From Paraspadella gotoi (lineage: Eukaryota; Animalia; Chaetognatha): a DNA stretch of 64,000 bases. A program made the position numbers and the translations under genes. Positions 700-64,000 of the stretch are shown one piece after another. Location of the stretch: the NCBI GenBank assembly GCA_051294375.1, contig CM119267.1, positions 15,540,105-15,604,104 of the forward strand. The letters are read 5' to 3'. Position 1 is the first letter of the stretch; the number at the start of each line of letters is the position of its first letter. The notes below the pieces were generated by a model. The model saw nothing but the letters and a program-made list of their open reading frames with translations. It made no database searches and was not told the origin of the DNA.

Positions 700-2592
700 G
701 ATCGACGTACCACGACTCTGGCATGTGAAAATGAGCTCCAGCCGAATCTCCCAGCAGCACGATTCCACGCCTTGCCGTACCGGCGCAAAGTTCGTCCTCA
801 TAGGAGGCACCGGTAACGGGATTAGTTCCAAAGATTCCATTACAATTAGAGTCTTTTTCGACATCTCCAGAGGCCGCAATTCTGCCGGGGTAGATAGATG
901 CGTCGTTATCGTCGCAATCCTCTCCTCGCCAAGAAGAACCTTGAAATGTTAATTTTTTTAAAAAATTACTTAAAAGCGTGCTTTTGTCGGTTTATATAAT
1001 TCTTGTCGTAAAAGAACCCGATTCAAAACAATACCTCGTAGAGTTTTTTGAGTAGAAAAAAAATCGCGGTCCGAGTCGCTCACGACGGAGTGATTCGTAA
1101 AAATTTTTATCACTTCTTCGCAAAGTTCACGAACATATGGCAAATCGCAAAAGGACCATTCTGTAAAGGAAAACTTTTAAGCAAGGCGCAGGGAGAGAGA
1201 TGGCGAAGGGGGAGAAGAAGGAATGAGGAGAAAATGAAGGTCGGAAAAATAAAGGATAAAAGCCTTACCAAAATTAGGAGGACTTCCCAATAAACGCAGA
1301 TCGGAGACGAGTCTGTGAAAAACTTGGCGGGTGGAGGTCTTGGACTGTAAAAATGATTGGTAATGTTTTGGTGTTCTCTTTTTTTTCTGGTTAGCGGATT
1401 TTGGGCGATGAAAAAGAAAGCAGTTGGGCTGAGAAGGATCGTCCATTACGCAGATGTTCAACGAGTGACAAATGGCTTCCGGTGAATGTCTGCTCACGAG
1501 AGAACGAACGATTGACTTGCCAAACCAATAGACGACGGTGCGACACAAGTAAACCCACTGCATTAATAAATAAAGATTAAATACATACAGGAATTGCCTA
1601 CCACATATTTATTAGGGAAGAAAATGATACAATCAATTGCAATCAATATATTTCAGCCATGAGCAAGTCGCGGCGAATAAGTATAAGGATGGAACTTTTG
1701 ATGCAACCAAGAATGAGATTGAGTTCATTAATCTCATTTGCATATTGTCGTATTGGAACCCACTTTTAGGTATTTCAATTATAGTTTAAAGCCTCAGGAT
1801 TAACTCTATGCCTTGACTTGGAACAGAGTTGGCTTCCAATATGGCAGTCCCATTCTCTCTTAGTCATAGTCCTTACTTATTGGGCTAGGAATTATGTCAG
1901 ATGTATTATATATATGTTTATTAATAAAGACTCTCTTTCCTCTATAGCTTATCGATGCTTATGACTTTACTCCCCTTAAGCTAGCTATATGTTCAAGAAT
2001 ACGAGCGTTCTACTACAGCAAGTTAGCATCTCTTATTTAACAAGTAAGTTAATTGGCATATTAATTAGGAATACTACTAGAGCTAAGTAAGTATATTGTT
2101 ATTTTAGGACCATTTAGCTCTCTTACATTGATGTATATAGGCCGGTTTTAAAAAGGAAACCCTTTTTAGAAATTTACCCGAGCTTCCTCTTATCTTATAC
2201 TGTTATTTTAGGACCATTTAGCTCTCTTACATAAGCACCTTGCCCGGGATGAGCTTGCAGAAACTGGTGAGTCCTTGCTCGACAGAGGCGTTGTTGTAAA
2301 CGGCCCATCTTTCGACGAGACCCAGGAGGATGACGCAAGTGGCGCATTCGAAGCCACCGTTGGCGCCACGCTTTGTCGCCGACTGTAAACGCGGTGTCTC
2401 ACGGAGAAGTTTTAAGGGGTTCGATGACGAAGGCGACGTTAAACGAAATTCGCCCGCACTTTTGTTAGGAGCGTTGACTAAGCCTCCGCTCGTAGAAATG
2501 TTCTCCGCGGGTGGAGTTTTTGTCGGTGGCAATAAAATCGTCAATAAAACAAAAACGAGAGTGAAAATGAAAAGGCCGCTTTTATTATCCAT
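700..2592 (-). CDS. AOAH: Acyloxyacyl hydrolase (saposin-like + GDSL lipase), 5' exons; gene continues past the window start
   Basis: Signal peptide and saposin-type ECATCVILLGLVE..FCKLIP in exon 1 (2239-2592). Spliced exons read ICHSLNIC, SDSDRDFFSTQKTLRG-SSWRGEDCDD..DSNCNGIFG..GIVLLGDSAGAHFH (catalytic GDS), matching AOAH motifs. Confidence 0.9.
1682..2231. mobile_element. Solo LTR copy 1 (Gypsy-like), with internal deletion and duplicated end
   Basis: Termini TATAAG...CTTACA, flanked by 4-bp TSD TAAG (1678-1681 / 2232-2235). Highly similar to 4000-4607. Lies in AOAH intron 1. Confidence 0.8.
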
Positions 2593-2631
2593 AGTCGCTT
2601 GATAAGGTCCATAAGAGTAATATACTTAAAA

Positions 2632-2811
2632 TCACTCGGGATCAAGATTGTAGAAAAAAGGAGCCAACATTGGATAAAAGAACCAGAGCAGAAAAATCAA
2701 TCCGCATCCGTAAAAAAGAGTATCTCTCAGAGGAGTTTGATTGTTGGATTCATGAGACACTTTTATGGATCCTATTCTGCTTTGATCGACAGGTTCCGTC
2801 GACATCTTCAT
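2632..2811 (-). CDS. Candidate 59-aa single-pass membrane microprotein or uORF
   Basis: MKMSTEPVDQSRIGSIKVSHESNNQTPLRDTLFYGCGLIFLLWFFYPMLAPFFYNLDPE*. The ATG is directly preceded by acceptor-like TTATTTCAAG, and the ORF fills the ESS2-AOAH gap. Confidence 0.45.
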   Translation of the reverse strand: MKMSTEPVDQSRIGSIKVSHESNNQTPLRDTLFYGCGLIFLLWFFYPMLAPFFYNLDPE

Positions 2812-2889: not shown

Positions 2890-5800
2890 TCAGAAGTAAT
2901 CCGCGGCCTTCTTCCTTGTAGGAATTTTTAGATCTAGTCCGTCAGTAAGAGATTGTTTTGTCGCTGGAGTGGCAGCGATGGATTGTGATCCTCCACAAGC
3001 CGATGACGGCTTCTGTCTTCTTAAAAGTCCAGAGGCGGCGATCATCCTTTTTTTCGAGGGCGTAGTCGCCGCGGAGGAAGAGGGAGTCAGGGTCGGAGTT
3101 ACAGGAGTTCGGGGAGACCGAGGGACCTGGCCCCCTTTGGATCTCGAGGAGTCAGGGGTTTTGTCGCCGTACCGAGCCGGTGAGGGCGTGTAACTCGCCT
3201 TGGAAAAAATGAAAACGGTTAAAATTATAAGGGTCAATAATGAGAAAAGGCTATAAACAAACTAAAAAAAAGAAAAAAAAAATTACATGCAGGGCTCGGT
3301 CCGACGGTTTACGAATACCAAGACCGGGCTGTTTGTCCACCAAGCGTTGCGCGGCTGGACTCAGGGTCGGCAAACGACCTGAAAAAAAAAAGATTTTTGG
3401 TGTCTATGTATAATAACACAGCTATGAAAATAGCTGGGACTAATACCAGTGAAAGGGGATTGTTGCGAAGGGTGAGACTTGATTTGATTCAAAGCTTTTT
3501 CTTTTCTCGCCCGGTGACTCTTCGAATGCCGCTCGGCCAAGTCGAGCGCTAGTTTGTCTCGACGAGGAACTTCAGGAATCACGAAGGTGGGGCCGGGGGT
3601 GCGAGGGATGGGAGTGTCCGAGGCGTCGAGTCGGAAAGGGGTTCCTTCGATCTCCCCTGAAAAATTTTTATTTTTAGTTGCACCACGAGTACTAGAATAC
3701 TGATAACAAAATAAATGTGGCACATTTTGTATAATATTTATTTTAGTTGACACTCTATAGATAAATGATTATGGTGTATTAAAATCCACCAACCGATCAT
3801 CAGCGGCCATTGGTGCAGGAGGCAAGTCATTCGCCTCCCAACCAAAAGGTCCGGGGTTCTAGCCCGGTGGTCGCCTAGCAGTTAAGAGTGACGGGGCGCT
3901 TAACCCGCCTGTAACACGGTGTTTCAGCCTGATCCGAAGCTCAGGGACTGCTTATATTGAACTGTTCTGTCACTAACTCATAACAATTATTACTGTCTCT
4001 ATAAGGAAGGAACTTTTGATACAACCAAGAATGAGATTGAGTTCATCAATCTCATTTGCATATTGTCGTATTGACATTGACTTGTCATAAATTCTGTTCC
4101 TGTGTCATTTCATGTTCTCATTTCACGAATTCACTTTTGTCATTAGTGTAGCTATTGATGATAATAATTGATTAGAGAGTTTGGGACATTTATTAATAAT
4201 AATTATCAATTAAACTAACTTATAAATATTCTTATTGGAACCCACTCTTAGGTATTTCAATTATAGTTTAAAGCTTCAGGATGAATTCTATGCTTTGACT
4301 TGGAACAGAGTTGGCTTCCAATATGGCAGTCCCATCCTCTCTGGTCTTAGTTCTTACTTATTGGGTTAGGAATTATGTTAGAAGCATTATATATTTGTTT
4401 ATTAATAAAGACTCTTTCTTTCCTCCATAGGGTATCTATGCTTATGACTTTACTTCCCTTAAGCTAGCTATATGCTTCAAGCATGCGAGTATTCTACCAC
4501 TGCAAATTAGCATCTCTTATTCTACAAGGAAGTTAATTGGTATGTTTATTGGAAATACTACTAGAGCTAAGTTTACTGTTATTTTAGGACCAAATAGCTC
4601 GCTTACATCTCTTCATCATAACGTTTATTACACATATATTTCTTGATAATGTAATCATGTTATCACCCAAAAATATACATGACAAGAAATTTACGGCGGC
4701 GCAACACATTTGAATTACCATTCTTGCTTTTTAAATGTCCAATATGTTTTATTCTTAATACAGTTTTTTTATTTTTGGAACCTTTCAACCTACCCCAAGT
4801 CATGAAGGGAGATTCTTCGACGCCGGGCAACGGAGTGGGGGTGGATACGAAGGCGAATCCATTAACGCGCGGGGTCTCCTCGGCGGCCAGTTCGTTTCCC
4901 TCGACGTCGATCTTGCCTGACTTGGATTGGTTGTTGGCGGCGACGGCGTTGGCCAGAGCCATGGCTTGTTTACCCTCGTCGAACGGGTTGGACAGCAAAC
5001 GGGTGTTGTTGTGCACCTCGAGGAAAAAATATACAAATTATACTCTAGCGGAGAACATTGAACACGGAATAAATGCCAGACATAAAAAAGTCAAAATAAT
5101 TAAATAAAAACTCACAATTTCCCTTGGCTTCGAGGGTCTGTCCTCGGAAATGGACCCCTCGCCATCAGGGATGTACATGAGAGCGTTTCTCGCTTTGTAT
5201 CCCGACCAGAGCTCAATCTGGTTAGGGCGGTTGTCGCTGTTGATCAGGTTGCTGCAACCTCCTTCAAGGTTTTTGCGCCACTCGAGCGCGAGGTCAACGG
5301 CGCCGTCTTTGGCCTTCGCCTCAGCCTCGTGAAGCCACCACCTGAAAAATAAATACGTGGTGATCACTTTTTTAACAAGGCTTGGATCCGTTGTTACAAT
5401 ATGACCGTCGTGATTCAATCCTTTACCATTTGATCCTTCTCTTTTCTTCACCCTCTTCGACAAGTTCGTCAAAGGAGGCATTGTCTTCGCTCGTGTGTCT
5501 CAGCATGTAAGCGTCTAGGCCTTTGACGATTTCCTTAGCCGATTCCTCCTTCGGTGGCGGTTCCTTGTTCCTGACAGCTTCGAGGTCACCGAGGTCGACT
5601 TCCGTTCCGGGTCGACGCGTCGGACCTGAATTGATTGATGAAAAAACGTTAATAAGAGACATCATGGAAGGCGATCGCCAAGTGGACGAACCTGTTGTTG
5701 GTCTACGACCTCCATCCTCGGAAGGGGTGTCGAATGAAGCCGGGGTGGAACCAGTAGTGGAACCAAAGACGGGCGTCTTGGAGCCGCCCCTTTTGGCTTT

Positions 5801-6139
5801 CGGGGTATATTTTGCGGCCAATTCTCGTAGTTTTTCGATGTCCTTTCTTTCGAGGGCGTCGAGGTATTCTTTTTGGGCACGGAGTTTTTCCAAGTCTGGG
5901 AAATAGTCTCTGCGAGGATGAATTTTATTAAATCACATAAGTCACGGGTTTAACGGCCCTGCAATAGCGAATATTATATATATATATGATAATTACCTGA
6001 CTATAATCTTTTCGATTTCGTTTAGGTACGTGTCCTCGTCCAAAACTTTTCGCTTTGGAGGTTTAGGTTTTTTGAAGACGTCGTCGTCAACTTTGGCGAC
6101 TGCTTTTGACGTGGAGGCGGGCGTGATTTCCCAAGACAT
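2890..6139 (-). CDS. ESS2: Splicing factor ESS2/DGCR14 (multi-exon)
   Basis: VLDEDTYLNEIEKIIVRDYFPDLEKL, YMLRHTSEDNASF, KARNALMY, ESPFMTWGEIEGTPFRLD and C-terminal RKKAADYF, joined by GT-AG introns. Confidence 0.93.
3803..3999 (+). mobile_element. tRNA-derived SINE (tRNA-Gly(CCC)-like head 3803-3874)
   Basis: Acceptor stem GCGGCCA/TGGTCGC, A-box TGGTGCAGGAGG and B-box GGTTCTAGCCC. The anticodon stem does not pair and a unique body follows, so this is a SINE rather than a tRNA. Confidence 0.7.
4000..4607. mobile_element. Solo LTR copy 2 (Gypsy-like)
   Basis: Termini TATAAG...CTTACA with 4-bp TSD TCTC (3996-3999 / 4608-4611) and an internal AATAAA. Inserted in the SINE tail within the long ESS2 intron. 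Confidence 0.85.
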
Positions 6140-6365: not shown

Positions 6366-7589
6366 TTAATAGGAATGATCTAACAATATAATCTGACTAG
6401 AATCCTCCGATATGACTGTCATGTTGGATAAGTGCTCCATGGCGACAATCGTTCCCCCCAAATCCGAAGGCCAACGTCCTTGAGCGGCTTGAATTCTGGA
6501 AACGTGGCATCCGGCGTCCCAGTGTTCTTTCAGCAGTGCCTTGCATGCGGCCAGCTCCGCCTTTAAGGTTTCAGTTTCCTTCTGGAGATTTTCGTTGGAG
6601 ACAGTCAGTTCGTGACAATTGGTCTCGAGCTGCGCGATCCAGGCTTTGCGTTTCAAACGACTCCGACTGGCGGCGACGCGGTTTCGCTCCAGGAGTCTTT
6701 GACGCCTGTCGCGGGGATCATCGTCGTCGTCGTCGTCGTTTTCGTCTTCGAAGGCGGAGTTTCCGGATGCCCGTCTCTTGGCCCCATCACTTTTTGTATC
6801 TTCGTTGGTAGTTTTACTGTCGGCGACGCTTGCTTTGGAGGGAAACGAATCAGGCGGCTCTTTCAAAGTATAATTGTTCGTGGAGGTCAGAACGGGAGGA
6901 TTAGGGTCATCGCTCCGTTGGGATACGACAGATTCGGGAGACATTTCTTGGACAACGTTCGGTCCAGGGATCACAAAGGGTACTTTCCCCTTGCCAGGAA
7001 TCTCGAGGAAGACCAAGGTTCGGCTCGTCGCAGGTTGACTTACAATTCTCAGCGGCATTTGGACGACCGAACGTAAATTTTCGAAAGACGGTTGCGTAGC
7101 CTGGAGGGACGGAGAGGGGAAGGGTACGTCGGGGACAGCGATGTTACCGAAAGGATCATTCGACGAGAGCGATGCAGACCGAGAAACCGAATCGGTGGCG
7201 CTAATGGCGTCGTCTTTTCCCGACTGCGTCTCTTTTGAGCTGCTGCTGACGCTGTTACTGTTACTACCGCCGGCGCCGCCTCCGCCGCAACTCCCTGCCA
7301 ATTCCCGTTTGAACTGTTCTTCAAAAGGATTGGGAGATCCGCGAGGAATTTCCTCGAACAAATGACCCTCGTCCAGGCGAAAAAATTTTGTCGGCGTCGG
7401 CGTCTGGTCCGAGGAAGAGGCGAAAAAAACACGGGGACTGCCGGTTGTCTCCGAGGAGGTGACGTCGGGATGCGTACCGAAGTCGAGGCGCAGGCCGTGT
7501 TTGTTGCGGTGGACGACCAAGTGGTCTTCATTGGCGAAGGTCAAGCCACAGCCAGGCCGTGAGCATCGAAAGGGCTTTGCCTCGGTCAT
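6366..7589 (-). CDS. ATF2/ATF7/CREB5-family transcription factor, single exon, 407 aa
   Basis: N-terminal C2H2 finger KPFRCSRPGCGLTFANEDHLVVHRNKH, MAPK site DQTPTPTKF and bZIP RRQRLLERNRVAASRSRLKRKAWI. Confidence 0.92.
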   Translation of the reverse strand: MTEAKPFRCSRPGCGLTFANEDHLVVHRNKHGLRLDFGTHPDVTSSETTGSPRVFFASSSDQTPTPTKFFRLDEGHLFEEIPRGSPNPFEEQFKRELAGSCGGGGAGGSNSNSVSSSSKETQSGKDDAISATDSVSRSASLSSNDPFGNIAVPDVPFPSPSLQATQPSFENLRSVVQMPLRIVSQPATSRTLVFLEIPGKGKVPFVIPGPNVVQEMSPESVVSQRSDDPNPPVLTSTNNYTLKEPPDSFPSKASVADSKTTNEDTKSDGAKRRASGNSAFEDENDDDDDDDPRDRRQRLLERNRVAASRSRLKRKAWIAQLETNCHELTVSNENLQKETETLKAELAACKALLKEHWDAGCHVSRIQAAQGRWPSDLGGTIVAMEHLSNMTVISEDSSQIILLDHSY

Positions 7590-8165: not shown

Positions 8166-9011
8166 TCAAGATTGTTGATAATTCACGCAGGCGTCTTTTA
8201 ACGTCTTAACGAATCCAGGTACCCCCGTTTTGGCCGCCCAATTGATTAGCCAAGTAGGAATGGTGCCTTAATAAACACTCGGGAATCAATTTGATTTCTG
8301 TTGATAATGAATTAAAAATTTTCAAAAAACCTTTCGGATCGTCGTAATAGTGTATGAAAGCTGTGGTACCGCCTTCCCCGTCGGAGGTTATAGCTAAAAA
8401 CTGGAAGTATTTTTCTACACGAATGACGCCCTTTTTCTCCTTGACGATTTCCACTCCTCCGCCTGCGATGTCATTGACAAAAATATTTTAACAAGAGAAA
8501 TATAACAAATTCATAATTCCTGAAAAACCGATTACCAGGCAACGTTTCTCCGAGTATAACGTAGACACGATTACCATTTCTCTCCAACTCTTTCAGTTTT
8601 CGAATGTAGACGTAATCTCGGTTGGACATGGGAAACGGATAATTCACGTTCCAATACACGGGACGCTCTTCGCTGAAAAACGAAAAACTTAATAATGAGC
8701 CTGACAGTAATCACAATAACGGAAAGCCTCCCTCACCCTCCGTCAACGCTCCCTCCCTCCGTCACGAACAACTCCTTGACGTAAGAATCCCATTTTTTTC
8801 GGTAGTCGAGATCCATGTAAACTTTGGCGCAGACGTCAGCGGGGACTTTTTTCAGGCGCGCGATCGCCTTGTACGAATAAAGTCCGCTCTCCGGAGAATA
8901 GAGGCGGTAGACGGTGACGTCCTCCGTCTCGATCAGCAACTCCCACCCTTCCAGGTGGGGGCTTTCTAGTTCGTCAGCCGCCGCTTCAAACCGCTCATCC
9001 GCGAAACTCAT
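8166..9011 (-). CDS. PCTP: Phosphatidylcholine transfer protein (START domain), 4 exons
   Basis: MDLDYRKKWDSYVKEL, YWNVNYPFPMSNRDYV and YDDPKGTIPTWLINWAAKTGVPGF. Confidence 0.9.
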
Positions 9012-9157: not shown

Positions 9158-10222
9158 TCACTCGTCATCTTCATCGTCCAAGTGACTGAGTTTGATTTCC
9201 TTTTCTTTCCGCGGTTTTTTTTCTCCACGATCGACGCCACGTTTCCGACTCTTTTTCGGTTCAGCACCGACGACGTACTCCTTCATCATGCGTTTAGAAC
9301 CGGCGCAGCCGAACCCCTCGCCCAACGGTGATTTTTCATCGGCGAGTTTTTCTTTCGTTTCTGGGCGATCGTCTGCAGCGGCGTCTTCGTCGTCGGCGTC
9401 ATCGGATTTCGAGTCATCGCCGATGCGCCGTCTTTTCGCTTCGGCTCCGCTTCTTTTTTTCGACAAGCCGACGGGCGCCTTGAAAATAATCTTTGTAGGC
9501 TCGTCCTCGCCTGCTCCCTGCGCTTCCCCACCATTGCCCGCCTCTTCCTTTTCCCTTCTTATTCTGAGGTCGTCCAAAAAGGCGAAAGCGGCGGATCTGT
9601 TGGACGAATCTGTCACGTCCTGTACGTCTTCCAGCGAGTAGCGTGTCCATCCGTCTGGATTCTTCATGAAGCCGGGCCGCGCCGGGCGATTGTCTCTTTT
9701 ACGTTTACGTTGAGGGACCGCGCGGGGGACTTTGAAATCGCTCCGGGGCATTGAAGATGTAGACGACGTCGATTCCCCGCCGCCACTGCCGAACACAACG
9801 TCTTTCACGTTGCGATGAATGTCTTCAAAAGCGTCACGCCGCTCGCTGTTCCGCTCTCTTCTCCTCGCTTCGGATAAGAGTCTCGAGTCGAAGCGATCCG
9901 TCTTCGACTCGTCGTCATTCTTGAGACAGGCCTCGGCCTTCTCCCTGAGTCGCTTGTTATTGGAAACGGCCTTGACGAAGGCGTCGTGCTTTTGCTCAAT
10001 CACGCCTAAATTGGAGAAAATATCTTGTGCCTTTCGATCGAAGGCGGAATTGCCGTCCGAGGCGAGGACGAAAGGTTCCGGTTCGGCGGAGGAAGACGTT
10101 GATCTTGAACCGCACGAGGATTGTCCCGAACCGTGAAGGATTGCGAGACCTTCGTCGACCGCGGAAGAGTCGGAAAAGACCGTGGAAGGGAGGGCGGGGG
10201 ATGGAAGGCGCTCGCCCGACAT
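9158..10222 (-). CDS. TSSC4: TSSC4 (U5 snRNP chaperone), single exon
   Basis: NPDGWTRYSLEDV, SNRSAAFAFL, KRMMKEYVVG and C-terminal IKLSHLDDED. The first in-frame ATG is at 10222. Confidence 0.88.
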   Translation of the reverse strand: MSGERLPSPALPSTVFSDSSAVDEGLAILHGSGQSSCGSRSTSSSAEPEPFVLASDGNSAFDRKAQDIFSNLGVIEQKHDAFVKAVSNNKRLREKAEACLKNDDESKTDRFDSRLLSEARRRERNSERRDAFEDIHRNVKDVVFGSGGGESTSSTSSMPRSDFKVPRAVPQRKRKRDNRPARPGFMKNPDGWTRYSLEDVQDVTDSSNRSAAFAFLDDLRIRREKEEAGNGGEAQGAGEDEPTKIIFKAPVGLSKKRSGAEAKRRRIGDDSKSDDADDEDAAADDRPETKEKLADEKSPLGEGFGCAGSKRMMKEYVVGAEPKKSRKRGVDRGEKKPRKEKEIKLSHLDDEDDE

Positions 10223-10519
10223 CTGGCGGATCTTTTGTTTCTGGATGTTCTTAAAACAATGACTCAACGAAACTAGAAACGTTAAATTTAAAACAAAAAG
10301 ATTGAAGCCAGATAAAATCATTAAACTAATACACGAAAATACATATTAAAAAATCGAATTTGATCATCATCAACTTGAAAACTACGGCGTCATCAAATAG
10401 GAATTTTTAGCAGCGAAGCGAAGCATAGTGAAAATTAAAGCTATTAATTATTTGCTATTAAAAATTTTGCTAAGTTTTCGCAATTCGCAACTCTCAAAAA
10501 TGAAAACATTCGAAATTCG

Positions 10520-20300: not shown

Positions 20301-20495
20301 CAAAGTCACCTTTGGGGAACCGCGGTGTCCATTTCCTAAAATAATCAGCTGAACTTGGCTCGGCGATTTTCCGGCCATTTCTTGGAGCCACCTTTTCCGT
20401 TCTTGAGAAAGAAATCGACTAATTTCGGGGACAGAAATCCTGCTGATGATTGTCACCGATAAATATCTATTTTTTAACAAAGAACGCTGGAGCAT
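17320..20495 (-). CDS. ELAC2: Long-form RNase Z (multi-exon)
   Basis: YLFNCGEGTQ, flexible arm IPRGPLLGKLVNGESV, FLGTSSALP, LDAGEGT, SHNHTDHHLG, YSGDTKP, HEAT and LTHFSGR. Confidence 0.93.
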
Positions 20496-32679: not shown

Positions 32680-39461
<6,782 letters not shown>

Positions 39462-51152: not shown

Positions 51153-51342
51153 GAATTTTTTCAAAAAATAGAGGCTCAAGGCATGGATTGTATTAGTTTC
51201 ATGAGCTAAAATAAAACAAAACCGTGAGCGCTTTTCGAATTTTTTCGAATGATCGAGTTATTAGAAAAACAAATCGACAAAAAAGCGCCCGGATGGTAAA
51301 ACAGCAACTTGAAAACGTTTTTATCACAGAAAACATTATCGC

Positions 51343-52754: not shown

Positions 52755-55497
52755 CTAAATGAGCCCTTTAGACTCGTTTTTCCCACGCGCATCCTGAAGG
52801 CGAAGAAAAGTTTCCTTATCTAAAGACTTCATTCCCGAAACGATGGCATCGACCTTCGCTTCTGCTTCTTCCTTTAACTGTTCCAAACGGAATAATCCGT
52901 CAACGTGCATGAGCATCCGGTTGAAATCAACGAGCCGCTTTGACGCCATCGCCCACTCCGCCGCTTTTGATTCTTTTTTAGCCTTTCGCCGCAAAAATTC
53001 TGCGGCGTCAAAACCGAGATACTCGACGCAGACGGCGTCGCTGATGCGGACGGCAAAAGTCGAGGCGCCATCGCAGATTTTCACGTCGATGTGAAATCCG
53101 GTGACCGGATCCGAACGAAACTTACCCAAAAAAGTTACTATGAAGCATTTGCACCAAAAAGGGGTAGAGTCTGAAGCACGGGCGCGAAATTCCGCGAGAT
53201 AGCTGAAGGGTCTCGCCCGAGATTCGTCACTGAGGCATTTCGTGATAGGCGACGAAACGTTCAAGTCGTCATTACGAAGATCGAACGCGTTTAAAGATAA
53301 GGGCGTTGTCGTTTCGACCATCGACTTTTCCTCCAACTTCGACCTTTTATACGCTTCAGATTTTCGACAATCTTCCGACTTGCGTTTTTCGGCGACCGAC
53401 GGCGGCCGCCCCGAGACACTGGAAAAAACGATGGCTTCGTCGTCGCCCAAGGAGAGATCGTGTTGAAAAGCGGAGGGAGGGCGATTTGGCGACCAGGGAC
53501 GCGATCTTTCTGACGCAGGATCCACTGGATCCAATTTAATGGCATTTGACGATTCCGCGCTGGGACTTTTTTTTGAAGTTGATGATTTAGCAGCGATGGC
53601 CCCCGCGGCCGCGATCAAGGCACCCCTCGAAGAACCCAACGTCGATAGTTTTACTGGCGAAGTGGAGACTTTAATTTGTCCAGTTCTGCTGATGTCCAAC
53701 TCACCTGAAAAATTATGTAGTCTCATCGAAGTTGAGACAACTTGTTGAGTGTTAGGATGAAAGCTAAGAGTTGTCTCAATACGCGGCAAAGGTTCCTGGT
53801 CGGAAATGTCGACCGCACCGGGATCTTCCTCCTGTTTTTCGATGGCTTCTATTTTCCGGAAAAAATCATCGTCGGGTGGGAGATCGTCGCCAAAGTCGTC
53901 GTCGTTTAAATCGTCTCCTGATGACGCGCTTTGAGACACCCCAAACATTTCATTGAGTACGGCACGGTGTTGCGTGGGAGTCGGGGGAGTTATAGGCATA
54001 CGCCTCGCGGTACGTACGGAAGGGGATTCCACGGCCTCGATTTTCACAGTCGATTCTCTTTTAATGGCTTTTCGATTGGGGATGACTGGAGTATGTCGGG
54101 GTTCATCCCTGCTTTGGCTCGTGGACTGCCTTGGCTCCAAACGTTCGTCTGGAGCGTCTGTACCCACGTTTAAAAAATCTCCTAGAGGCTCCCTTTTCTC
54201 GCGCCGATCTTCAGTCGTCGTTCCCCGAAGATTGGGAAAACGCTTGCGAAGTTCGTCGGGACGCAATTTTATTCTTTTGGCGAGTACATCGATTAAAGTT
54301 TTGTCCTCCGCAGTTGAGTCAAGGTCTCCTCCGAGGACCTGAAGGTTGCTGTCGGTAAGGAAAAGAGTGCCTCCGCGGACAATGGGAACGGGACCGACCA
54401 GATAAAGCTTCGTTCCAGGAGGCATCTAGGAAAACGTTTATATAAACATTTAACTACGACCTACGCGCCTGACGTAAAATGAAAGATTAACCTTATCATG
54501 CAGTTTGCTCAGCGGTTTCCATTCCATGCCAAAAACGGAGTGTACTCCGTCGTGAAGCTCAAACTTCATCATACGTTTCTTTTTCGGCTCCCATGCAGCC
54601 TGGAATCTTTCCGGGAAGGCAGATACTTCGGAGTTTTCATTTTCTGAACCCGATGCCTGCGTTTCCAGTAAAGAAAATTAGAGATCAAGCTACTTTTTTA
54701 ACCGGGTGGCGTTTCGACCTTCAACAACTGTCCGTAGGCAGGCGCAGCTACATCTACAATCCACTCCAGTTGAACCGCGTATTTTCCATCATCCAATTGC
54801 ATTCGCCTCCCAGGATCACGTTCCTAAAAACACATAGGTTAAATGATGTGTTTGCAAATTAAGCCGTCAATCAGCAATACAGTACTTCTTGCAAAGTTAA
54901 AGAAGGTGGTAATGATGAGGCTCCAATCTCTTTCAAGTCAGCATGCAGCCATTGTTGATAAACTTCATCCTTAATCTCTTGAACCTATGATTTCAAACGA
55001 TAACTTTTCATGGGACGAAGGGAAAGGTATAGTCTATACTGTGGCGGTATATTCAGTCCGCCTTACATCCACCATCGTTCAGCCAATCCCAAGTGTTGCA
55101 TTCCATCTACAGTCCTAACGACTTCCCTCTGCGTTGGCAAAGCGAGACCGTCCTAGGGAACAGCGTCAGTGAAAGGAGTTGTCACTGAGGGTCGTAAGCC
55201 CTCAAAGCCAACAATGAGATGCTCCATCCCAATGGGCATCACAGGCGACCCGGCTGTAGCCATAATACTATAGATCTTTTTTTCTCACTTTTTGGTACGG
55301 TAAAGAATCTATCCTCTCTTGCAAGTTCTGTTCTTCAACGACGAATTCCGTGCACGCCAAAACCCAATCGGCTGAAACGAAATAACTTATAACATTTGTT
55401 CGGCAAAAAAACTATAATAAATAAACTTACCGGAAACAAAGATATGTTTTTGACGTAACCAGCTTTCAACGCTATGCCTTAGAGTCTGCATAGTCAT
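52755..55497 (-). CDS. RMI1: RecQ-mediated genome instability protein 1 (multi-exon)
   Basis: VYQQWLHADLKEIG, KRMMKFELHDG..GME, PPGTKLYLVGPV..GTLFL..VLGG and a C-terminal OB fold (PFSYL..DVKICDGAS). Confidence 0.88.
55109..55257 (-). ncRNA. Candidate intronic structured RNA, copy A (unassigned family)
   Basis: GC-rich island in RMI1 intron 54985-55288, homologous to 29834-29986. Hairpins GAGGG/CCCUC, CAGUGA/UCACUG and GCUGUUC/GGACGGU, and stem UGUUGGC/GCCAACG. Confidence 0.6.
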
Positions 55498-56441
55498 AAA
55501 TAATAGTGAAATCCATCAGTGGGCAAATGTGGCCTTTTCTGAACCATTTAGAGGATACAAGGTACAAGGTAAAAATGGAAGACAAAACAAAATCTCAGCT
55601 GGTTCGATCGAAGTCGAAAATACAATATTTTTCTTTTAAAAAAAGTATTAAGGAATATCAGGGCGGATTAAGGAAAGATATTTAGGCATCACTCACGTTC
55701 ACAAACTCGTAACAAATACAGATGGCCCTTAAACGTTACGATTTAGGATTTAAAAAATATCACAACATCCAGAGTTAATATTTTTTAAAAGAGGAGGTTA
55801 TTAAATATTCAAATATTAAAAAATACATTTAGTACCGTAAGCCATACTCTTAAAAATTAAAAAAAAATGTTTATTATGGTTTGCAACCTGCTTTTGTATT
55901 CGTGCGTTAGTTTGAATTTATTAGGTTGTAAAACCTACTTTATACTTATTCTTATAATATATATAACGAAATTTAAGTTGCGCGATGTCAACTTGGCGCA
56001 AATAATACATTGAAAAACATGCATACAACCTAGTCAACGTCAAATGCAATAACGTTAATATTTGGCTTGCAAATTGCAATACACATATTAAGAATAGAAT
56101 TTCTTAAATTGATCAAATGATCATTACAATCATCTGGGATTTTGATTGTCAGTGGCTGTAGGCTTTCGTAATATCCCATTTTTTTTTGTTTCATCATGAG
56201 AAATATTTATGATGCGCTCTCTTTACTTTCGCCCAATTAGTGCTTTAAAATTATTCTCATTAGGATTTTGTATAACTAGAACCTTAGTTTATTTTTTTTT
56301 AAGGGGTAATTTAAATTTCTTTTTAAGTCTTATGGCTCTTGAGTCTTTACTCGTCCGTTTCGTCATCAACGCGAATCATAAATAACAGCGCATACCTGAA
56401 TTGGAAATTTCGCAATTTAACAGCCTACAGCAGACCCAGCG

Positions 56442-57852
56442 TCATATGGACAAGGATCCGACGCTCTCTTCCTCTGCCTCGGAATCACCGACCTTGTCGA
56501 TGACCGAGTTATAGTGCTCTCCGAGTCTGTAAAAATGTCTGTGGTAGGAGAGAATCAGCGGGGATTCGCTGCCAAACTCCTGGCCGCCCACGTTGACGAC
56601 AGGTCCGTCGGCCTGGACGATTTCGATCGGGATCTTGAAAACGTTGGCTAGGGCCCTGATCTCTAGCTGGCCGCCCCAGGCGGTTGTCTTGGCCACCCTG
56701 TCGCAGTAACCGTCGAAGGCCTCCTCGGTCATGGGTTCCCCGGTGTTCGGGTCTGTGAGGAAAGGGAGGAAGTCCTCGCGATGTGTCCGCATGTGAGCCG
56801 CCGCGCGCTCGCGCAGGTCCTCAATCGTCTCTCGCTTCTCTTTGCGTCGGCGGAGCTGGTCGGCCACGGCCGAGTAGAGGCAGTGGCCGTTGGCGGGAAC
56901 TTCGTGCACGGCCTATTTCAATATAGGGAAATAAGAAGAAACAAATTTTACGTCTAAATTTTTTAAAAATTTTAATAATGTAATAAAATTGTGATTGAAA
57001 TCACAATTTTATTACATGCAGCCGTCAACGATCGAAACCTGGTTTTTGATTGCCAATATTCGTCTGAGTTTTTCAGCCTCTATGTGTCTCGCGCCCCTCT
57101 TGTTCGTTTCCTCTTCGTCTAATATTCGCTGCTCCCGTTCTCGCTCCTTTCGCTCTTTCTGTTCGCGTCTTCGTTGCGCTTTGCTTTTTTTGCCTCCTGG
57201 TAGATTGCGAAAAGAGAAAATCAATAGGTAGACTGGTAGAAACTAAGACGAGAAAATAAAAAAAAATTCACAAAAGAAAAACAAGTTCAAATAAATTTAA
57301 AATAAAAACTCATGGCTGACCCCCGGTCTCTGACTCGGTTCCCGGCATCGACGAGGTATCTGCCCCTTCCCCGAAATCCGGCGTCAGAGTGGACATAGAG
57401 GCAGAGGGCGTGGAGAGCGACGGGGCTGTGATTGAGAGCGAAGGGGTGGCTGGGTCGGGGAGTATCAAGTCGCCGGCGGTGCTGTCCAAGGGAAAACCGC
57501 TCAGTTCCGATTCGGAAGCGACGAGGGGACCCCGAGGGACGTCCTCCTCGGCGACCATGGGAGTCTTCCAGCCCTCGGACTCGCTGTCGTCGTCACGTAA
57601 CCCTCCATCCTCGGTCGCCTTCGACAGCTCCACTTTCTCCGCCTCGCCGTTTTCAAAGTCTTGCAATTCCTGCTTGTGTCTTTGAACCAGGGCGGCCTCC
57701 AAGTTTTGAATCTGTTCCTGAACTTCCTTCTTTCGCTTTTTGTCGTTTTTATTTAGGGATTTTTTAAGGGCTTGAATTTGGGACTGGAGGGATTTTTGCT
57801 CGTCTCGGTGGCGCTTCTTTAGCGCTTCTAGGGAAGTCATTTCTTCGCTCAT
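56442..57852 (-). CDS. OTUD6B: Deubiquitinase OTUD6B, 3 exons
   Basis: RHRDEQKSLQSQIQ, SKAQRRR, VPANGHCLYSAVADQL, WGGQLEIRAL and LGEHYNS. Confidence 0.93.
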
Positions 57853-57925
57853 TGTCTTTAAAATCACTTCGTCTGAAAAACAATATCAATAAATAAACTA
57901 CGTATAATAAAATAGAAAAACAAAT

Positions 57926-59168
57926 TCATCGCGCAAGTAAAGATAACGACTCGACGCATTCGCTTCTCCGCGCCAACGAAGCCAAGTCAAGCGGCGTCCG
58001 ACCCTCTGCATCGACGATTAAAATGTCATTTTCGTCAACTTCGATATCTTTCAATCGATCGAGAATTAGGCCGACGATCTCATGATGTCCTTCTAGAGCG
58101 GCATAGTGCAAAGGAGTTCTTGCGCGGTCGCCGTTTGGCCTTAGCAACGCCTCGCGCGCGCTAATAGTTTTAGTCATTTCGCGAAAAACAAAAAGGAAGC
58201 AAGAGACGTCGCCGACAATCGCTGTCAGGTCTATTGGACGCCGACCCAAAGAATCGAAATCGGAATTAGGATCGATATCGCTCCGCCGCTCCGCCAACAA
58301 AAGTTCGGCGATCTCCACGTGACCTCCCTTGAGGGCGTCGGTGAACGGCGTCGCCCCGCAGGCATCGCGACAATCGATCGACTTTCGCCAAACTTGAAGC
58401 AAAACGCGAACGGCGTCGATCTTGCCGTGGAGCGACGCCGTGTGAAGAGGCGTTCGTCGCACGGCGCTTTCTGTTTGCCAGAGATCAGGATTGAGGCGAA
58501 GTAGATACTCTAGTACGGCTCGACTGCCGACACGACATGCCAGATGGAAACAGGTCCAGCCGTCTTTGTTTTTCAGATTGGCGTAGGTTGCGCCTCCTGA
58601 AATATAACGGGGACCGGTTAACATTATTGTTGGCCCAGTTCATTTAACTTGACACCCCTTAAAAAAGCCTTTATTAACGTTTCACCTTCCTCAATCAACA
58701 ATTTAATGACGTTGAGGTCGCCTTTCGTGCAGGCGAGCATCAACGGCGTCCAAGTAGCTCGCTTCAACGCATCCACGTCGACTCCACCCGAAATTAGATA
58801 AGAAACACAATCCGTGTGGCCAAAGTGGGCGGCTTCGTGAATAGGACGTTTGCCGTCAAAGTTGGCTACTTCTAGACTGATAGATCAGTGTTTGGGTCAT
58901 AAAGAGCTTAAGTAACCAAAAGGATCAGTTACCTTGCATCGTATCGATCCCTCAACAGCCTCAAGACAGTAGTTCTACCATGACGAGCTGCCACGGTGAC
59001 GAGATAATCTCCATTTCTTTTTCCGTGAAGCTGCACCAAATCTTTCATCGACGCGACATCTGATTGTTCCTCAATTAAACTATTTAATTCCTCCACGGAC
59101 CCCTTTTGAATCATGCGAAAGAGTTTTTCGAGAGCCGATGATAGTGTGCTGTCACGTCGCTTGCCCAT
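57926..59168 (-). CDS. ANKRD16: Ankyrin repeat protein, ANKRD16-like, 3 exons
   Basis: NFDGKRPIHEAAH, VDALKRATWTPLMLACTK, NKDGWTCFHLACRVG, RRTPLHTASLHG and DACGATPFTDA. Confidence 0.85.
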
Positions 59169-59337: not shown

Positions 59338-60325
59338 CTATGTCGCGTTTACGTTTTTCGCTTTATTCATAGTTAATTTCATTTGTTCGACTAAAAGTTT
59401 TCGTTCAGTCGGCGGAGTCAAGAAATACAACTTCTGTTGGTCAGAATATCTCTGCTCAACCGGAATAACGTCTCGGTAAGTACAGTCTCGCCAATTTCCG
59501 TTGAAGCGTTCAAGCACTTCGATTTTCTTAGCGTCCGTTTCGAGCACGTCAAGACTTTCCTTACGCGTTAGATTCGGAAAATGAATCTAAAAATTATTCA
59601 TTAAAAGATCGGAATAAATTTTCTTAAATAATATTACAATACAACAATACCTCAGGAAAAATAAATATTCCACGAATGGCAAACCATCCTCCATATTTAG
59701 GATGAATACAAACGCCGAACATTTTCTGGGTCGGCTGCCAGGATTTGTCCTTGACGTCCGACTGTTGGTAATAATAAGCCGCACCTAAAATTAGGGAACA
59801 ATGGCTTTAAAAAAATTAATCTCTCCTCATATGAAAACTATTTACTATTTACTATTCACCAGCTACGTGAGCCGCAGTTTGAACTAAAATCTTGGGCCTT
59901 CTAGATCCGGGAATCATTTCAAAATCGTGGATAACTTCAACATTTTTAACTTCGTCAAAGGTGTTTTGGACATCGAGAGCCATTTCCTGCAAGTTGAAAA
60001 CAGAAACGCGATGTTAACGAGAAAACGTCTCGCACCGCGAATTGGGTTATACATGTATTACCTGAAACTTAATTTTCATGAAGCTGTCGACTGGATCCCG
60101 ACCTTCTTCTTCGCAGGCCGTCTCCCCGCATAAAAAAGGGACGAAAGAGTTTTCAAACATGCGGGGGACGCTTAGCACGACGAAAGCCAACGTGTCGGAG
60201 TCCAAGCGATCGAAACGAAAAGGCGGACTCACCGTCTCGTTGTACCATCGAAGGAGAAACGGATGTGATTCAAAACCCAACGGCGAAAGTTTCGAATCCA
60301 TGATGGAACAGAGTCTTTCTTCCAT
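59338..60325 (-). CDS. MMACHC: Cobalamin-processing protein CblC, 4 exons
   Basis: GFESHPFLLRWYN, PRMFENSF, RRPKILVQTAAHVAGAAYYYQ, IHPKYGGWFAIRG, NWRDCTYRD and YSDQQKLYF. Confidence 0.93.
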
Positions 60326-60453
60326 GACTCAATCGAGCACCTAATTGAAAATTGTCGTCGAAGACGTCATAAGCGATCGACGGATGAAGGTAGTTAAAAA
60401 AAAAACGTGGCTGTGGGCATTTTGAGAATGCCAAATAAATTTAAAGCTTGTTT

Positions 60454-62483
60454 TTATAAGTCAAACATTTCGCTGATGGGATCTCTCATGCCTTCCTCGG
60501 TTTTGTTTTCGAGAGGTTTGTTTTTCGTCGTGTTGCCGAAGTTCATTATGTAGTCGTTCAAGGCCTCCTTATTCCGAGGATCGGGTCTCTCGTCGGTGGA
60601 AGGGGCGGCGTTATAATGAACCAGAGGTATCGCTCCGGGAACTGGGTACTGAACAATGCTGTCGGTCGGATATACCACCGTTGGGTATTTTATGAGATCT
60701 TTGTCGGGTACCCCTTGTTGAGTATTGTTTGACGCTTTTACTTTGGCTTCCTGAGTGGTGTTAAAGACGGCCCCTGATTTAGATTGGTCAGAGGCCTCCT
60801 TGTCATCGTCTTCGACAAATATGTTTCTTCCTTTGACGGGGATCACTTTTTTCATCTGTTTCGCTTTTGTGACCTTCTTAGACGATTTAGGTTTGGTCCC
60901 ATTTTCCATCCAATCTTTCCACTGATTTAATCTCTTTTGTGTCTCGTTAGCGTCCTGTTTAAATATTGAAAACAACTTTGTAAATATTCAAAAACATATC
61001 TATCGATCGCCCAGTCCTTAGATAACATTTTGAAAAATTGTGATAAAACTTGCCCGAGTTAAATCGTCTAATTTCCGTTGCTTAATGTTGGGAGGATGAA
61101 CTGAATTAAACATTTCTTCTTTGACCGCGGCGATCTGCGGAGTTTGACGACAAAAATAATTTACCACTTAAAAATAAAAAAATGATTATTAGTACCGTAC
61201 ACAACAGAAGATATAACCTGCTTGGAATACTTTTCGAACTTTTCTTCGGTTCTGACCCAAATGTCTTCGATATCCTCCTCGCACAAATCGAGCTGGGCGA
61301 GCTGTTTCTTCGTCAAAGATTGCTCATCCTTAGTCCGGCGCTTTTTCAAATAATTGGTCGTCTTGATCATGAGAAACATCCTTGTTAAGACCCAGGGTTG
61401 GTCTACGTTGTCGTCGTCGACTTGCCTGTCGTCGTCGGGCAGAGATTCCGGTTCAGAATCTTCCGAGTCAATCTCCTCTTCCGGTTCAATTTGGATATCT
61501 TTGTCCCGAGATCGCGGCCCCGGCTTGTCTTCACGAGATCGATCTCGCCACGCGCGGTCGTCCCCAGCGTCGTTACTCCGACCCGAATAATTACGATTTC
61601 CTCTACCCCCTCCCAATCCTCGTCCTCGGTTTCGGCCAGAGCCTCTCTTCCTGCCTGAAAACATCTGCTGCAGTGGCTCGTCAGGCACACCGAAAGGAAA
61701 GGGGTCGAATCTCTCGCCCTCGGAATCGTATCCCGGACGTGATGTTTTGGGCGGCTTTTTAGACTCTTTATTCCCCACACGAACGTCTTCGTCGTCGTCG
61801 TCTTCCTCGGACGAGTAGGACGAGTCAGAAAAGTCCATATTTCTCGTGCTTTGGATAGCGTAGATTTTTTCTTTTTGTCTGACGTAATCCGCCCCATTTG
61901 TATAATCTGGTCTGAGATCTCGTCCCGGTCGTTGATCACCGTCGGAGTAACGTTCCGAACGAATACGAGGATCAGACCGACCCCGATGACACGCGCGCGG
62001 ATATTGACTCGTATGCGGAGGGGCCGAGATAGGAACGACACGGCTTTGGCTCCGTGGAATGTACAAAGACTGGTCTCTAACAGTGTTGTACTCCTTGGAA
62101 GAAGCCAAACGTTTACGGAAATCGGGGTCTCGACCACATCTGTCCCATTGGATTAAATGGTCCGAGTAGTGAGGCTGGGACCCTTGACGGTACGACTGAG
62201 GATCATGCCTGGAGGGTTCTTGGCGGTATGGTGGGGCTTTGGAACGGTGGGTCAGTGAAGACTCTCGACGAAGATGAGAATCTGAACGGTAAGAGCTAGC
62301 CTCTGGACGGTACGCCTGAGGCGAATGGTAGGAACGTGGGTCCGACTGGTAGTTTCTGGGCGAACGCTGTCTGTGTATGGAGGTGCGATCTTCGTAGTGA
62401 CCGCGCTTCGACGAAGCACGATGATCGTACGGCGGAAAACGCATCGGATCTTCCGACCGGGAATCAAAATGAGAACGTTTCAT
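60454..62483 (-). CDS. Orphan low-complexity protein (RS/RD/Y-rich, RGG, acidic, short coiled coil), 3 exons
   Basis: The long first exon is joined by one GT-AG and one GC-AG intron to the 60454-60954 exon in a continuous frame. No family recognised. Confidence 0.7.
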
Positions 62484-62627
62484 TTTTTATGCCAGTCACC
62501 AATATATACTAACAAAATAGAAAAAATTTGGAGAAATATAAAACATTAATCTTTGTATGTATTTAACATTAGTGACTAGATGATCAAAAAAAATAAACGT
62601 TGAAAAACCCGAAAAGCGCTAAGAAAA

Positions 62628-63985
62628 TTAATTCTTCCACTTTATGTTGGGGTTTTTCAGCAGCAGATCTGCATGGATCGCGTTCTCCGGTTTCAGTTTT
62701 CTCGCGTAGTCAATGAGGCCGAGCCTGTCCCGTTCCGTGGCGAAGGCGTCGACGGCGGCTAAATGACACCCGATTTTTATCGCCGTCGCCAATCGATCAC
62801 CAACGTCATTAACTTCTAACAGGTAGGAGGCAACCATTCGTGACTCGGCACCCTTCAAAGAATATTATCTGGGTATTGATTATTTGATTACAAGGTAAAA
62901 ACTAACTTTCTCATTCTAACCTGCTTCGACAAAATGGAGGCAACCGTTTTAAAATCCAAATCGACCTTGCGTTTCTCCTTGCCGAAAAAAGACTTTGTCT
63001 TAAGTAGTTTGTCCACTTCCGTCCAGCGCTTTAGCCGTGCGTGCGCTCGCAGCGCTACCCAAGCGTGTTGTTTCTGAGAGAGGCCGAAAGTCTTCCGCAG
63101 GAACTCAGGGCTGCCGAAGCAGCTGACCGGCTCTCCGTAATGGTAAGTGACGCAGTAGTTGAGTGACGTGAGCAGTGGGAGATCGATGAGGCTTGATGGT
63201 CGGGGAATGCGGGCAAATATTTCCAATTCTGGTGGAAGATTAGGTTCGGGTAAAGGCGGCGAAGATTGTTGCTCAGCCCGGAGTCGCAGCAACGTCTCTT
63301 TGGCCTTGGCGGCGACCTCCGCGTCTGACTGATCGATCGGCTGTTGAACTTCGAGGAGCTGGATTTGTTGCTGAATCAAAGCGGCGTCTTTGGCGAGGAA
63401 GGGGTCGGAAAGATAATGTGCTTGGAGGCAAGACTTTAGAGCACGGACTTTTTGTTGAGGATTCTTCATTTTCGTTGCTTGACCGAACTTTAAGATGGCA
63501 GCTTCCTCGTTGAAGCCGAACATACCGAGGGTCTCGATCAAATCGGATGTTCGAGAAGTTTGCCTCAAGTACTGTCAATAAATAAAAATAAACGTTCTCA
63601 ATTGGGCATTCCCAATAATTTTCTCATTTTCTCTTCGTACCTGCAAATAATGATCTCTCGCCGCGGGACGGGATTGAATCTCGGCCAAAAACAAATTGGT
63701 TTTGACAGTTTTATGAAAGAAAACGACGGCGGCGGTAAGAGCGTCCCCGTCGCCGCAATCGACGGCGGCGTCCAGCAAGGCCAGTTTTTCGTTCAAAGAT
63801 TTGTAGGTCTCAAGGGTATAGACCTGGAATAAGGAATTTGAAAATACGTACTACAGTAAAAAAAAAAAAATCAACAATCTTGCCTGCCCAGTTAACATGC
63901 GCTTGACCGTTTCCTCGACTGGAAGAGACGTCCAACGCGAAGATTCAGCCGCCGCCAATTTGCGTTTGTAAGAATTGAGATCCGA
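62628..63985 (-). CDS. VIPAS39: VPS33B-interacting protein VIPAS39/SPE-39, 3' part
   Basis: PVEETVKRMLTGQ|VYTLETYKSLNEKLALLDAAVDCGDGDALTAAVVF, FGSPEFLRKTFGLSQKQ and C-terminal NIKWKN. Confidence 0.88.
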
Positions 63986-64000
63986 CTTTTAAAAAAAATT

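Follow-up and report, generated by a model that had tools for sequence, protein, structure and literature searches.

Results

The window, by which we mean the whole 64-kb stretch of DNA analysed, carries 25 genes of functionally unrelated, housekeeping type, which are arranged head-to-tail and all lie on the minus strand (25/25; Table 1, in which the gene coordinates depend on ATGs chosen by eye). A Pfam match with E<0.001 was obtained for 21 of these genes (132 minus-strand ORFs were submitted, of 187 ORFs of at least 65 aa), and two are orphans, one of which (gene 2) is covered by RNA. On the plus strand none of 149 ORFs of at least 65 aa reached the Pfam cut-off, three matches falling below it at E 0.002–0.01, and the longest ATG-initiated ORF among the 15 large gaps and introns scanned was 64 aa. 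Of the 44 RNA joints, 25 were listed, 23 of them reading CT..AC on the plus strand, equivalent to GT-AG on the minus strand; the remaining two were a minus-strand GC-AG intron and a repeat artefact, so that no plus-strand intron was found among the 25. The recount returned the same 25 genes as the first-pass annotation, which had placed every recognisable gene on the minus strand and had seen no convincing plus-strand gene, and both statements stand.

Table 1. Genes and other features of the 64-kb window
Feature	Position	Strand	Evidence or remark
Gene 1, Vps16_C protein, presumably VIPAS39-like	62628..64000	-	Atlas: Vps16_C on 36% of cluster members; three spliced joints; starts upstream of window
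Candidate trans-splice acceptor of gene 2	62508..62510	-	Contig begins right after AG, with 5 unaligned letters
Gene 2, Arg/Ser-rich orphan	60454..62483	-	422-aa first exon without Pfam match; RNA contig
Gene 3, MMACHC	59338..60325	-	PF16690; exon model
Gene 4, ankyrin-repeat protein, presumably ANKRD16-like	57926..59168	-	PF12796
Gene 5, OTU deubiquitinase, OTUD6-like (OTUD6B)	56442..57852	-	PF02338; RNA joints
Putative GT-AG intron, 857 nt, OTUD6B-RMI1 gap	55539..56395	-	Predicted retained-path contig 56425..55514 equals that observed at both ends
Gene 6, RMI1	52755..55491	-	PF08585, PF16099
Gene 7, mitochondrial-type ribosomal protein S2	51343..52692	-	PF00318; RNA joints
Gene 8, short RNase Z, ELAC1-like	49537..51202	-	PF00753/PF12706
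Gene 9, AAA ATPase, ATAD1-like	47199..49398	-	PF00004; RNA contig shared with gene 8
HSF acceptor AG	47067-47066	-	Contig begins cleanly right after AG, at 47065
Gene 10, heat shock factor (HSF), intronless	45051..46979	-	PF00447
Gene 11, 2-oxoglutarate dehydrogenase E1 (OGDH)	39906..44479	-	Pfam
Gene 12, protein kinase with C-terminal bromodomain, fusion	32680..39461	-	PF00069, PF00439; open frame across
Gene 13, ninjurin	32041..32546	-	PF04923
Gene 14, ENTH protein, CLINT1/epsinR-like	28380..31722	-	PF01417
Gene 15, PEX11, intronless	26904..27788	-	PF05648
Decayed tandem copy of first DHRS4 exons	26040..26560	-	Repeat, 75% identity; frameshifts, stops
Gene 16, short-chain dehydrogenase, DHRS4-like	23650..25826	-	PF13561/PF00106
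Gene 17, orphan	21045..23490	-	712-aa first exon; no Pfam match of note
Gene 18, long tRNase Z (ELAC2)	17320..20495	-	PF13691
Gene 19, CTD phosphatase FCP1/CTDP1	12867..16864	-	PDB 3ef1, E 2.5e-4; weak NIF and BRCT; RNA contig
Gene 20, PLP-dependent D-serine dehydratase/D-threonine aldolase-like (DSD1)	10520..12305	-	PF01168, PF14031; seven RNA joints
Zero-gap boundary AG	10273..10274	-	Upstream contig ends and downstream contig begins here
Gene 21, TSSC4, intronless	9158..10222	-	PF15264
Gene 22, START protein, PCTP-like	8166..9011	-	PF01852; three RNA joints
Gene 23, C2H2-bZIP factor, ATF2/7-like, intronless	6366..7589	-	PF00170
Gene 24, ESS2/DGCR14	2890..6139	-	PF09751; exon model
Gene 25, acyloxyacyl hydrolase (AOAH)	1..2811	-	PF20825; PDB 5w78, E 4e-28; extends past window

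The 24 stop-to-ATG gaps measure 62–1077 nt (median 222), 13 being no longer than 250 nt and 22 no longer than 600 nt. One of the two longer gaps holds the putative intron discussed below, and the other, between PEX11 and DHRS4 (1077 nt), holds a same-strand pseudogene relic of DHRS4; the latter is the largest gap of all and was missing from the first-pass list of larger gaps. The gaps are T-rich (39% T on the coding strand) and just 7 of the 24 contain AATAAA. The array is open at both ends of the window and shows no strand switch over 64 kb. Gene 12 contains a transposon-filled intron of 2.7 kb with inverted-repeat elements; division of this gene into a separate kinase and bromodomain gene was considered and rejected, as the frame is open between them. 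ARAGORN identified no tRNA in the window, and Rfam returned one sub-threshold Twister match (E 0.32).

The probability of 2^-24 (6e-8) previously assigned to the run is correct under independent orientation, in which case approximately 5e-4 such runs would be expected per genome of 15,000–20,000 genes; with a 70% frequency of strand sharing between neighbours, a genome would be expected to hold about one run of this length. The run therefore points to strong strand coupling, genome-level or regional, and is not by itself evidence of one transcript.

The RNA evidence derives from the contigs of one public run, which are unstranded, and the joints, pieces and loose ends described are among those listed; the RNA nature of this run was established by the splicing of its contigs rather than by its record. 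Single contigs bridge seven of the 15 boundaries examined (of 24 in the array), an eighth is tiled, and at three further boundaries the start of the RNA falls precisely on an acceptor AG. Bridging contigs were obtained for orphan-MMACHC-ANKRD16 (4076 nt), ELAC1-ATAD1 (2101 nt), CTDP1-DSD1 (3670 nt), TSSC4-PCTP-ATF (3362 nt) and ATF-ESS2 (4791 nt). Since 4037 nt of the last contig remain after the first ESS2 exon, compared to 1459 nt for spliced ESS2, it likely extends into AOAH; RNA thus connects the seven genes from CTDP1 to AOAH in a chain, of which the last link is a likely one. Taken by themselves, the exon and gap pieces listed reproduce all 18 of the 18 depth bins checked, which argues that the introns are uncovered and the gaps covered. 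A contig that spans two genes is not proof of one transcript, as overlapping UTRs or low-level read-through would suffice.

Six larger gaps had been proposed as candidate internal promoters, and for three of these the RNA coverage does not support that role: 7590-8165 and 12306-12866 are each bridged by a single contig, while 55498-56441 is RNA-covered and likely contains an intron of 857 nt joining the 3′ UTR of OTUD6B to the 5′ UTR of RMI1. The 56395-55539 joint itself is absent from the listed RNA rows; splicing there would leave 93 nt between the OTUD6B stop codon and the RMI1 ATG. In the HSF-OGDH gap (44480-45050) RNA coverage is interrupted at 44668-44775, next to a masked repeat; this is the sole hole among the four candidate gaps examined and could mark a true unit end.

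At the zero-gap boundary, for which no bridging contig was found, the upstream contig ends with five unaligned letters at a putative poly(A) site, and the downstream contig opens with nine non-genomic letters, the candidate leader end ATTTTATTA+AG, of which the window holds no exact copy. These nine foreign letters likely represent the end of a spliced leader (SL). The candidate leader letters end in AG and the two other AG starts (those of gene 2 and HSF) are consistent with a leader whose last letter is not G; the three sites thus do not point to a single leader. Within the window no SL RNA gene was detected, Rfam giving nothing above gathering score. The candidate leader end together with the term ‘spliced leader’ gave no match in the literature searched; its one match, in the supplements of PMC2566580, is internal to a different leader primer. 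It also does not match the chaetognath leaders of the 2008 table, which end in ..TTAAA as compared to ..TTATTAAG here. A splice-site matrix built from 23 RNA-confirmed introns identified AG candidates in all 24 gaps, yet it was not used as evidence because the RNA-supported AG at 10273 scored below the top three of its gap.

In a protein tree, the window forms a clade of its own (seven rows, SH-aLRT 100) with Logan/JGI proteins, no named chaetognath being among the matches. Nematode and arthropod affinity was ruled out by the tree and an indel in OGDH, and mollusc, annelid and nemertean affinity by the tree and a second indel. The source is a marine invertebrate, likely a chaetognath (arrow worm), with a tunicate, or a member of another phylum lacking named proteins among the matches, as a possible alternative. 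Against metagenome contigs, the HSF alignment gave 0 of 598 stretches, and the OGDH query gave 80 loci with 38–49% identity, none near enough to belong to the same clade.

Discussion

Several known systems share features with this array. Like the window, operons of C. elegans SL2 type and of Oikopleura have a spacing of approximately 100 nt and T-rich gaps; the window is not nematode, as judged by the tree and indel, and its canonical introns and PEX11 gene presumably set it apart from O. dioica. Operons in Ciona intestinalis without intercistronic DNA (PMC1488885) and those of SL1 type in C. elegans have an upstream RNA that ends at the leader-receiving AG, an arrangement seen here once, at 10273/10274, with a presumed poly(A). 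Such operons are mostly dicistronic and reach six to seven genes, and the Ciona leader ends in GAATAAG, unlike the motif found here. Like the window, kinetoplastid directional clusters place unrelated genes by the tens on a single strand, and in Leishmania 98% of gene pairs are co-directional (PMC2871058), whereas the genes here are intron-rich and the likeness is drawn from one window.

Chaetognath operons (PMC2481426, PMC12460157) combine unrelated housekeeping genes on one strand, very short spacing and a poly(A) site by the acceptor, features that the array shares, its poly(A) site being a putative one; SL operons with 3-nt spacing have been described in this phylum (PMC2481426). The longest reported comprises nine genes under a 250-bp rule (PMC12460157), in contrast to the run of 25 genes here. 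On BAC 35A21 of Spadella cephaloptera, all 14 oriented host genes lie on one strand and the four minus rows are all transposon proteins (PMC2481426, Table S5). This BAC hints at a phylum-wide strand bias, for which no analysis was found in the literature searched; in the P. gotoi paper (PMC12460157), ‘orientation’ occurs zero times in the main text and ‘strand’ zero times in three supplementary PDFs, the large gene table aside.

On balance, and by a modest preponderance, we favour an explanation in which the window consists of a few long operons arranged in a chain, with precursor RNAs that SL trans-splicing would cut into single-gene mRNAs. Polymerase II would start at few promoters and read through several genes, the SL would be spliced onto an AG 10–150 nt ahead of each ATG, and upstream 3′ UTRs would, like those in operons of Ciona and Spadella, often reach that acceptor AG. 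With a donor located inside the 3′ UTR, as is likely for OTUD6B, cis-splicing would compete and leave a spliced dicistronic RNA. Promoterless downstream genes could not be inverted, and operons would thereby accrete on one strand. The spliced contigs that cross boundaries and the likely leader on an acceptor AG lend RNA support to the operon-like reading of the first-pass annotation, which had allowed for one very long unit or several operons; at least one unit of seven or more genes (CTDP1 to AOAH) is likely.

That the whole array, of at least 25 genes and at least 64 kb, is transcribed from a single upstream promoter as one polycistronic unit, kinetoplastid-like and SL-resolved, appears unlikely to us. 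It would agree with a window in which there is neither a strand switch nor an unexplained gap above 591 nt and in which RNA covers three of the four gaps examined among those proposed as promoters, as well as with a chaetognath BAC that is strand-coherent over approximately 120 kb and with the few open-chromatin regions of trans-spliced genes in P. gotoi (PMC12460157). Published animal operons, however, have at most seven (Ciona, PMC7986045) and nine genes (P. gotoi), the 44668-44775 hole interrupts the RNA, and regulated factors (HSF, ATF) as well as the transposon-filled intron lie within the array. Monocistronic genes with compact promoters inside the 3′ end of a neighbour are a poorer prospect; here, UTR overlap or read-through would merge the contigs, for which continuous overlap alone suffices, and co-orientation would reflect avoidance of antisense collision in a compact domain. 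Contig depths do differ between genes (92–307), depth being a poor measure, but gaps of 62–146 nt leave little room for promoters, co-directional pairs amount to only about 50% in most eukaryotes (PMC2871058), and both the zero-gap boundary and the non-genomic letters on its acceptor AG would be unexplained.

Mature spliced polycistronic mRNAs might instead persist and be translated by re-initiation or leaky scanning, with trans-splicing at some boundaries, an alternative that we regard as decidedly improbable. Cis-splicing is complete in the bridging contigs, removal of an intron from between two genes is likely, and the depth of the RMI1 contig (152) approximates the sum of the two OTUD6B paths (90 plus a residual 47–68), although such sums are rough. 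Assemblers drop short leader branches, and the missing leader at bridged sites is for that reason uninformative. Furthermore, ordinary SL operons of Ciona also yield spliced, unresolved dicistronic cDNAs (PMC1488885), a feature shared with the array. An artefact, whether misassembly or non-animal DNA, is largely refuted and most improbable, given that 92–99% of sampled words of 40001-49900 occur in eight DNA runs from five samples (three of them possibly the source), that gene adjacency is confirmed by RNA from another study and that the proteins are animal-like.

A broader proposition, doubtful as it stands, is that an intron-rich animal, likely a chaetognath, groups its housekeeping genes, tens at a time, into directional clusters of kinetoplastid type with one or very few promoters; the window would be one such unit, at least 64 kb long and with at least 25 genes, and the Spadella BAC would have the same architecture. 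If true, the unit would be approximately three times as long as the longest animal operon found in print. Operons in animals are generally regarded as short (2–9 genes), and long directional clusters as peculiar to protists; a run of 25 genes with RNA continuity provides a defined place in which to count promoters, and allows one to ask to what extent an animal can dispense with gene-by-gene transcriptional control while cis-splicing is kept. Applied to the stop-to-ATG gaps, the 250-bp rule divides the array into 12 blocks, the largest having five genes; RNA crosses gaps of 561–950 nt that this rule cuts, which limits distance-based operon calling.

Results

All 25 genes located in the window, the whole minus strand of which was inspected, lie on that strand by ORF, Pfam, PDB and Atlas reading, which bears out the first-pass annotation's count of 25 one-strand genes. 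Pfam identified 21 of them at E<0.001 (the search took in 132 of 187 minus-strand ORFs ≥65 aa), while a PDB match added the identity of FCP1/CTDP1, another confirmed AOAH, and Atlas supplied a Vps16_C lead for gene 1; names that go beyond the Pfam or PDB labels are those which we take these genes to bear. For the two orphan genes, whose long first exons are of low complexity, Pfam gave no match of note. The absence of plus-strand genes claimed by the same annotation was likewise upheld, as none of the 149 plus-strand ORFs that measure 65 aa or more, all of which were scanned, reached the curated Pfam cut-off (three gave weak matches), and plus-strand ATG ORFs above 64 aa were absent from the large gaps and introns. 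The large introns contain repeats.

Stops and start ATGs, the latter chosen by eye, were tabulated for all 25 genes. The 24 stop-to-ATG gaps measure 62–1077 nt (median 222), with 13 at or below 250 nt and 22 at or below 600 nt. Their coding strand is T-rich (39% T) and AATAAA was found in only seven of the 24. Within the 1077-nt gap lie the decayed remains of a tandemly duplicated set of DHRS4 5′ exons, in the array's own orientation.

Sequence from the window was present in eight DNA runs and in one run taken as RNA (X9), the latter being a single run from one study whose contigs are unstranded and carry one depth each. The X9 contigs were placed on 44001–64000 and 5900–13100, thereby taking in 15 of the 24 boundaries. 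This RNA is spliced: of the 25 joints listed, 23 have minus-strand GT-AG borders and one GC-AG, the remaining joint being an artefact of a repeat. The listed pieces alone reproduced the observed depth in each of the 18 bins checked, and therefore introns lack contig cover while gaps are covered.

At least seven of the 15 boundaries are each spanned by a single X9 contig among the contigs listed, a contig spanning two genes not being equivalent to a single molecule. The ESS2/AOAH boundary, beyond the stretch covered by X9 placement, is likely crossed by RNA too, because the contig has 4037 nt left and spliced ESS2 takes 1459. Taken with the DSD1/TSSC4 boundary at 10274 described below, where two contigs meet, these contigs place CTDP1, DSD1, TSSC4, PCTP, ATF, ESS2 and likely AOAH in an RNA chain over 17 kb. 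Between OTUD6B and RMI1, modelling of retained and spliced forms of a putative intron, using a 30-nt overlap and a 5-nt suffix common to donor exon and acceptor, predicted both ends of the contig in this gap exactly, and the RMI1 contig start falls on the same node in one of two RMI1 exon models; the model suggests an intron whose joint is absent among the rows listed. At HSF/OGDH the RNA ends at 44776, leaving 44668–44775 without cover, and the adjoining repeat was masked by the tool.

At three boundaries an X9 contig begins at an acceptor AG, the candidate trans-splice site before a gene's ATG, and the three starts are not in agreement as to a terminal G in the putative leader. At 10274 the upstream DSD1 contig stops on the same AG, with five unaligned letters, and no X9 contig crosses this boundary. 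The nine letters plus AG at the TSSC4 start are matched exactly nowhere in the window (four one-mismatch matches against 4.1 by chance). We infer that the nine letters are a leader on TSSC4 and that the DSD1 3′ end lies at that acceptor.

Features of the array, in window coordinates
Feature	Coordinates	Detail
Orphan gene	60454-62483	gene 2
Orphan gene	21045-23490	gene 17
Gene 1 intron	63823-63883	spliced, GC-AG
Orphan/MMACHC		single X9 contig spans boundary
MMACHC/ANKRD16		single X9 contig spans boundary
ELAC1/ATAD1		single X9 contig spans boundary
CTDP1/DSD1		561-nt gap; single X9 contig spans boundary
TSSC4/PCTP		single X9 contig spans boundary
PCTP/ATF		576-nt gap; single X9 contig spans boundary
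ATF/ESS2		single X9 contig spans boundary
OTUD6B/RMI1 X9 contig	55514-56425	
Putative OTUD6B/RMI1 intron	56395-55539	modelled
Acceptor AG, contig start	62508	5 unaligned letters
Acceptor AG, contig start	47065	no unaligned letters
Acceptor AG, contig start	10274	9 unaligned letters
DHRS4 5′ exon duplicate	26040-26560	decayed
Kinase-bromodomain gene	32680-39461	gene 12
Kinase-intron stretch with MITE-like elements	34720-37431	
MITE-like element 1	35082-35254/35607-35779	arms
MITE-like element 2	35790-35970/37249-37431	arms
ELAC1-like	49537-51202	short RNase Z
ELAC2	17320-20495	long RNase Z
Repeat, AOAH intron	1682-2232	
Repeat, ESS2 intron	4000-4608	
RMI1 intron 2 element	54985-55288	core ~55025-55275

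Discussion

On balance, the most likely reading, held with modest confidence, is that the array consists of a few long operons, linked in a chain and resolved by spliced leader (SL). In such operons 3′ UTRs would extend to the next gene's acceptor, cis-splicing would compete where the UTR holds a donor, and, since a gene lacking its own promoter cannot be flipped, the array would be kept on one strand. That the array is instead a single unit with 25 genes or more, which would resemble a kinetoplastid directional cluster, is a good deal less probable. The chance of 2^-24 put forward in the first-pass annotation is correct under independent orientation, and about 50% of gene pairs are co-directional in most eukaryotes (PMC2871058), but at 70% co-direction about one such run per genome would be expected; what the run of 25 therefore proves is that strand choice is strongly coupled, and it does not prove a single transcript.

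That the genes have promoters of their own and RNAs that overlap appears unlikely, and stable polycistronic mRNAs marginally more so. An artefact is very improbable. As to the operon chain that we favour, the array agrees with an SL operon in orientation, spacing and RNA continuity, and would work like one; what would be new is its size.

Approximately half of P. gotoi genes are trans-spliced and 18% lie in operons, the longest of which, as defined by a 250-bp rule, holds nine genes (PMC12460157); the gene spreadsheet in that supplement, which may bear on the array's annotation, lies outside the supplement text searched. Spadella leaders are 36 nt and end in TTAAA, and a Spadella operon has three bases from poly(A) site to acceptor (PMC2481426). 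On Spadella BAC 35A21 all 14 oriented host genes are on the plus strand and the four minus-strand rows each list a transposon protein (Table S5 of PMC2481426, limited to SwissProt-matching predictions); the authors' sole comment in the available text is that genes of this kind could be operon members. Ciona operons have no DNA between their cistrons and give rise to spliced unresolved cDNAs (PMC1488885); they reach seven genes (PMC7986045), and the available portions of PMC11067885, PMC2776167 and PMC2566580 add nothing further on operon size. A term search of the Flaccisagitta genome preprint, in its text without supplements, returned zero occurrences of operon, trans-splicing or strand, and no report of long co-oriented arrays in animals was found in the literature searched, mostly without subscription papers.

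Relatives and other features

The closest relatives of HSF are four proteins (46–62% identity over 44–86% of the query), and the named matches that come next are from molluscs, amphioxus and vertebrates. In a 50-row quick tree, built from a chosen subset of matches with no tunicate, chaetognath or non-bilaterian among them, OGDH groups with six Logan/JGI proteins (SH-aLRT 100; nearest 80% identity), separate from nematodes, arthropods, molluscs, annelid, nemertean, flatworm, echinoderms and mammal. This clade retains a residue missing from the arthropod and nematode rows and lacks an insertion present in the mollusc, annelid and nemertean rows, the indel states of the window's OGDH being read off its own sequence. 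One protein-cluster member comes from 'merc', presumably a marine eukaryote catalogue. A chaetognath is the favoured source of the window, at somewhat better than even odds, and a tunicate or a further phylum absent from the tree is less probable.

Gene 12 encodes a protein kinase fused in frame, via a long acidic linker, to a C-terminal bromodomain, an unusual architecture, and one of its introns holds two MITE-like inverted-repeat elements. Short and long RNase Z genes both occur in the array, 29 kb apart. A repeat of ~550 nt is present in two copies, 85–96% identical in pieces. RMI1 intron 2 carries a GC-richer structured element, without an Rfam match, with a folding energy of −87 kcal/mol on the minus strand (z −2.4, against −0.6 on the plus strand); 17 RNA contigs match it at 55223, with a very high summed depth of ~48,500, and it probably represents either a repeat family with high expression or an uncharacterised small RNA.
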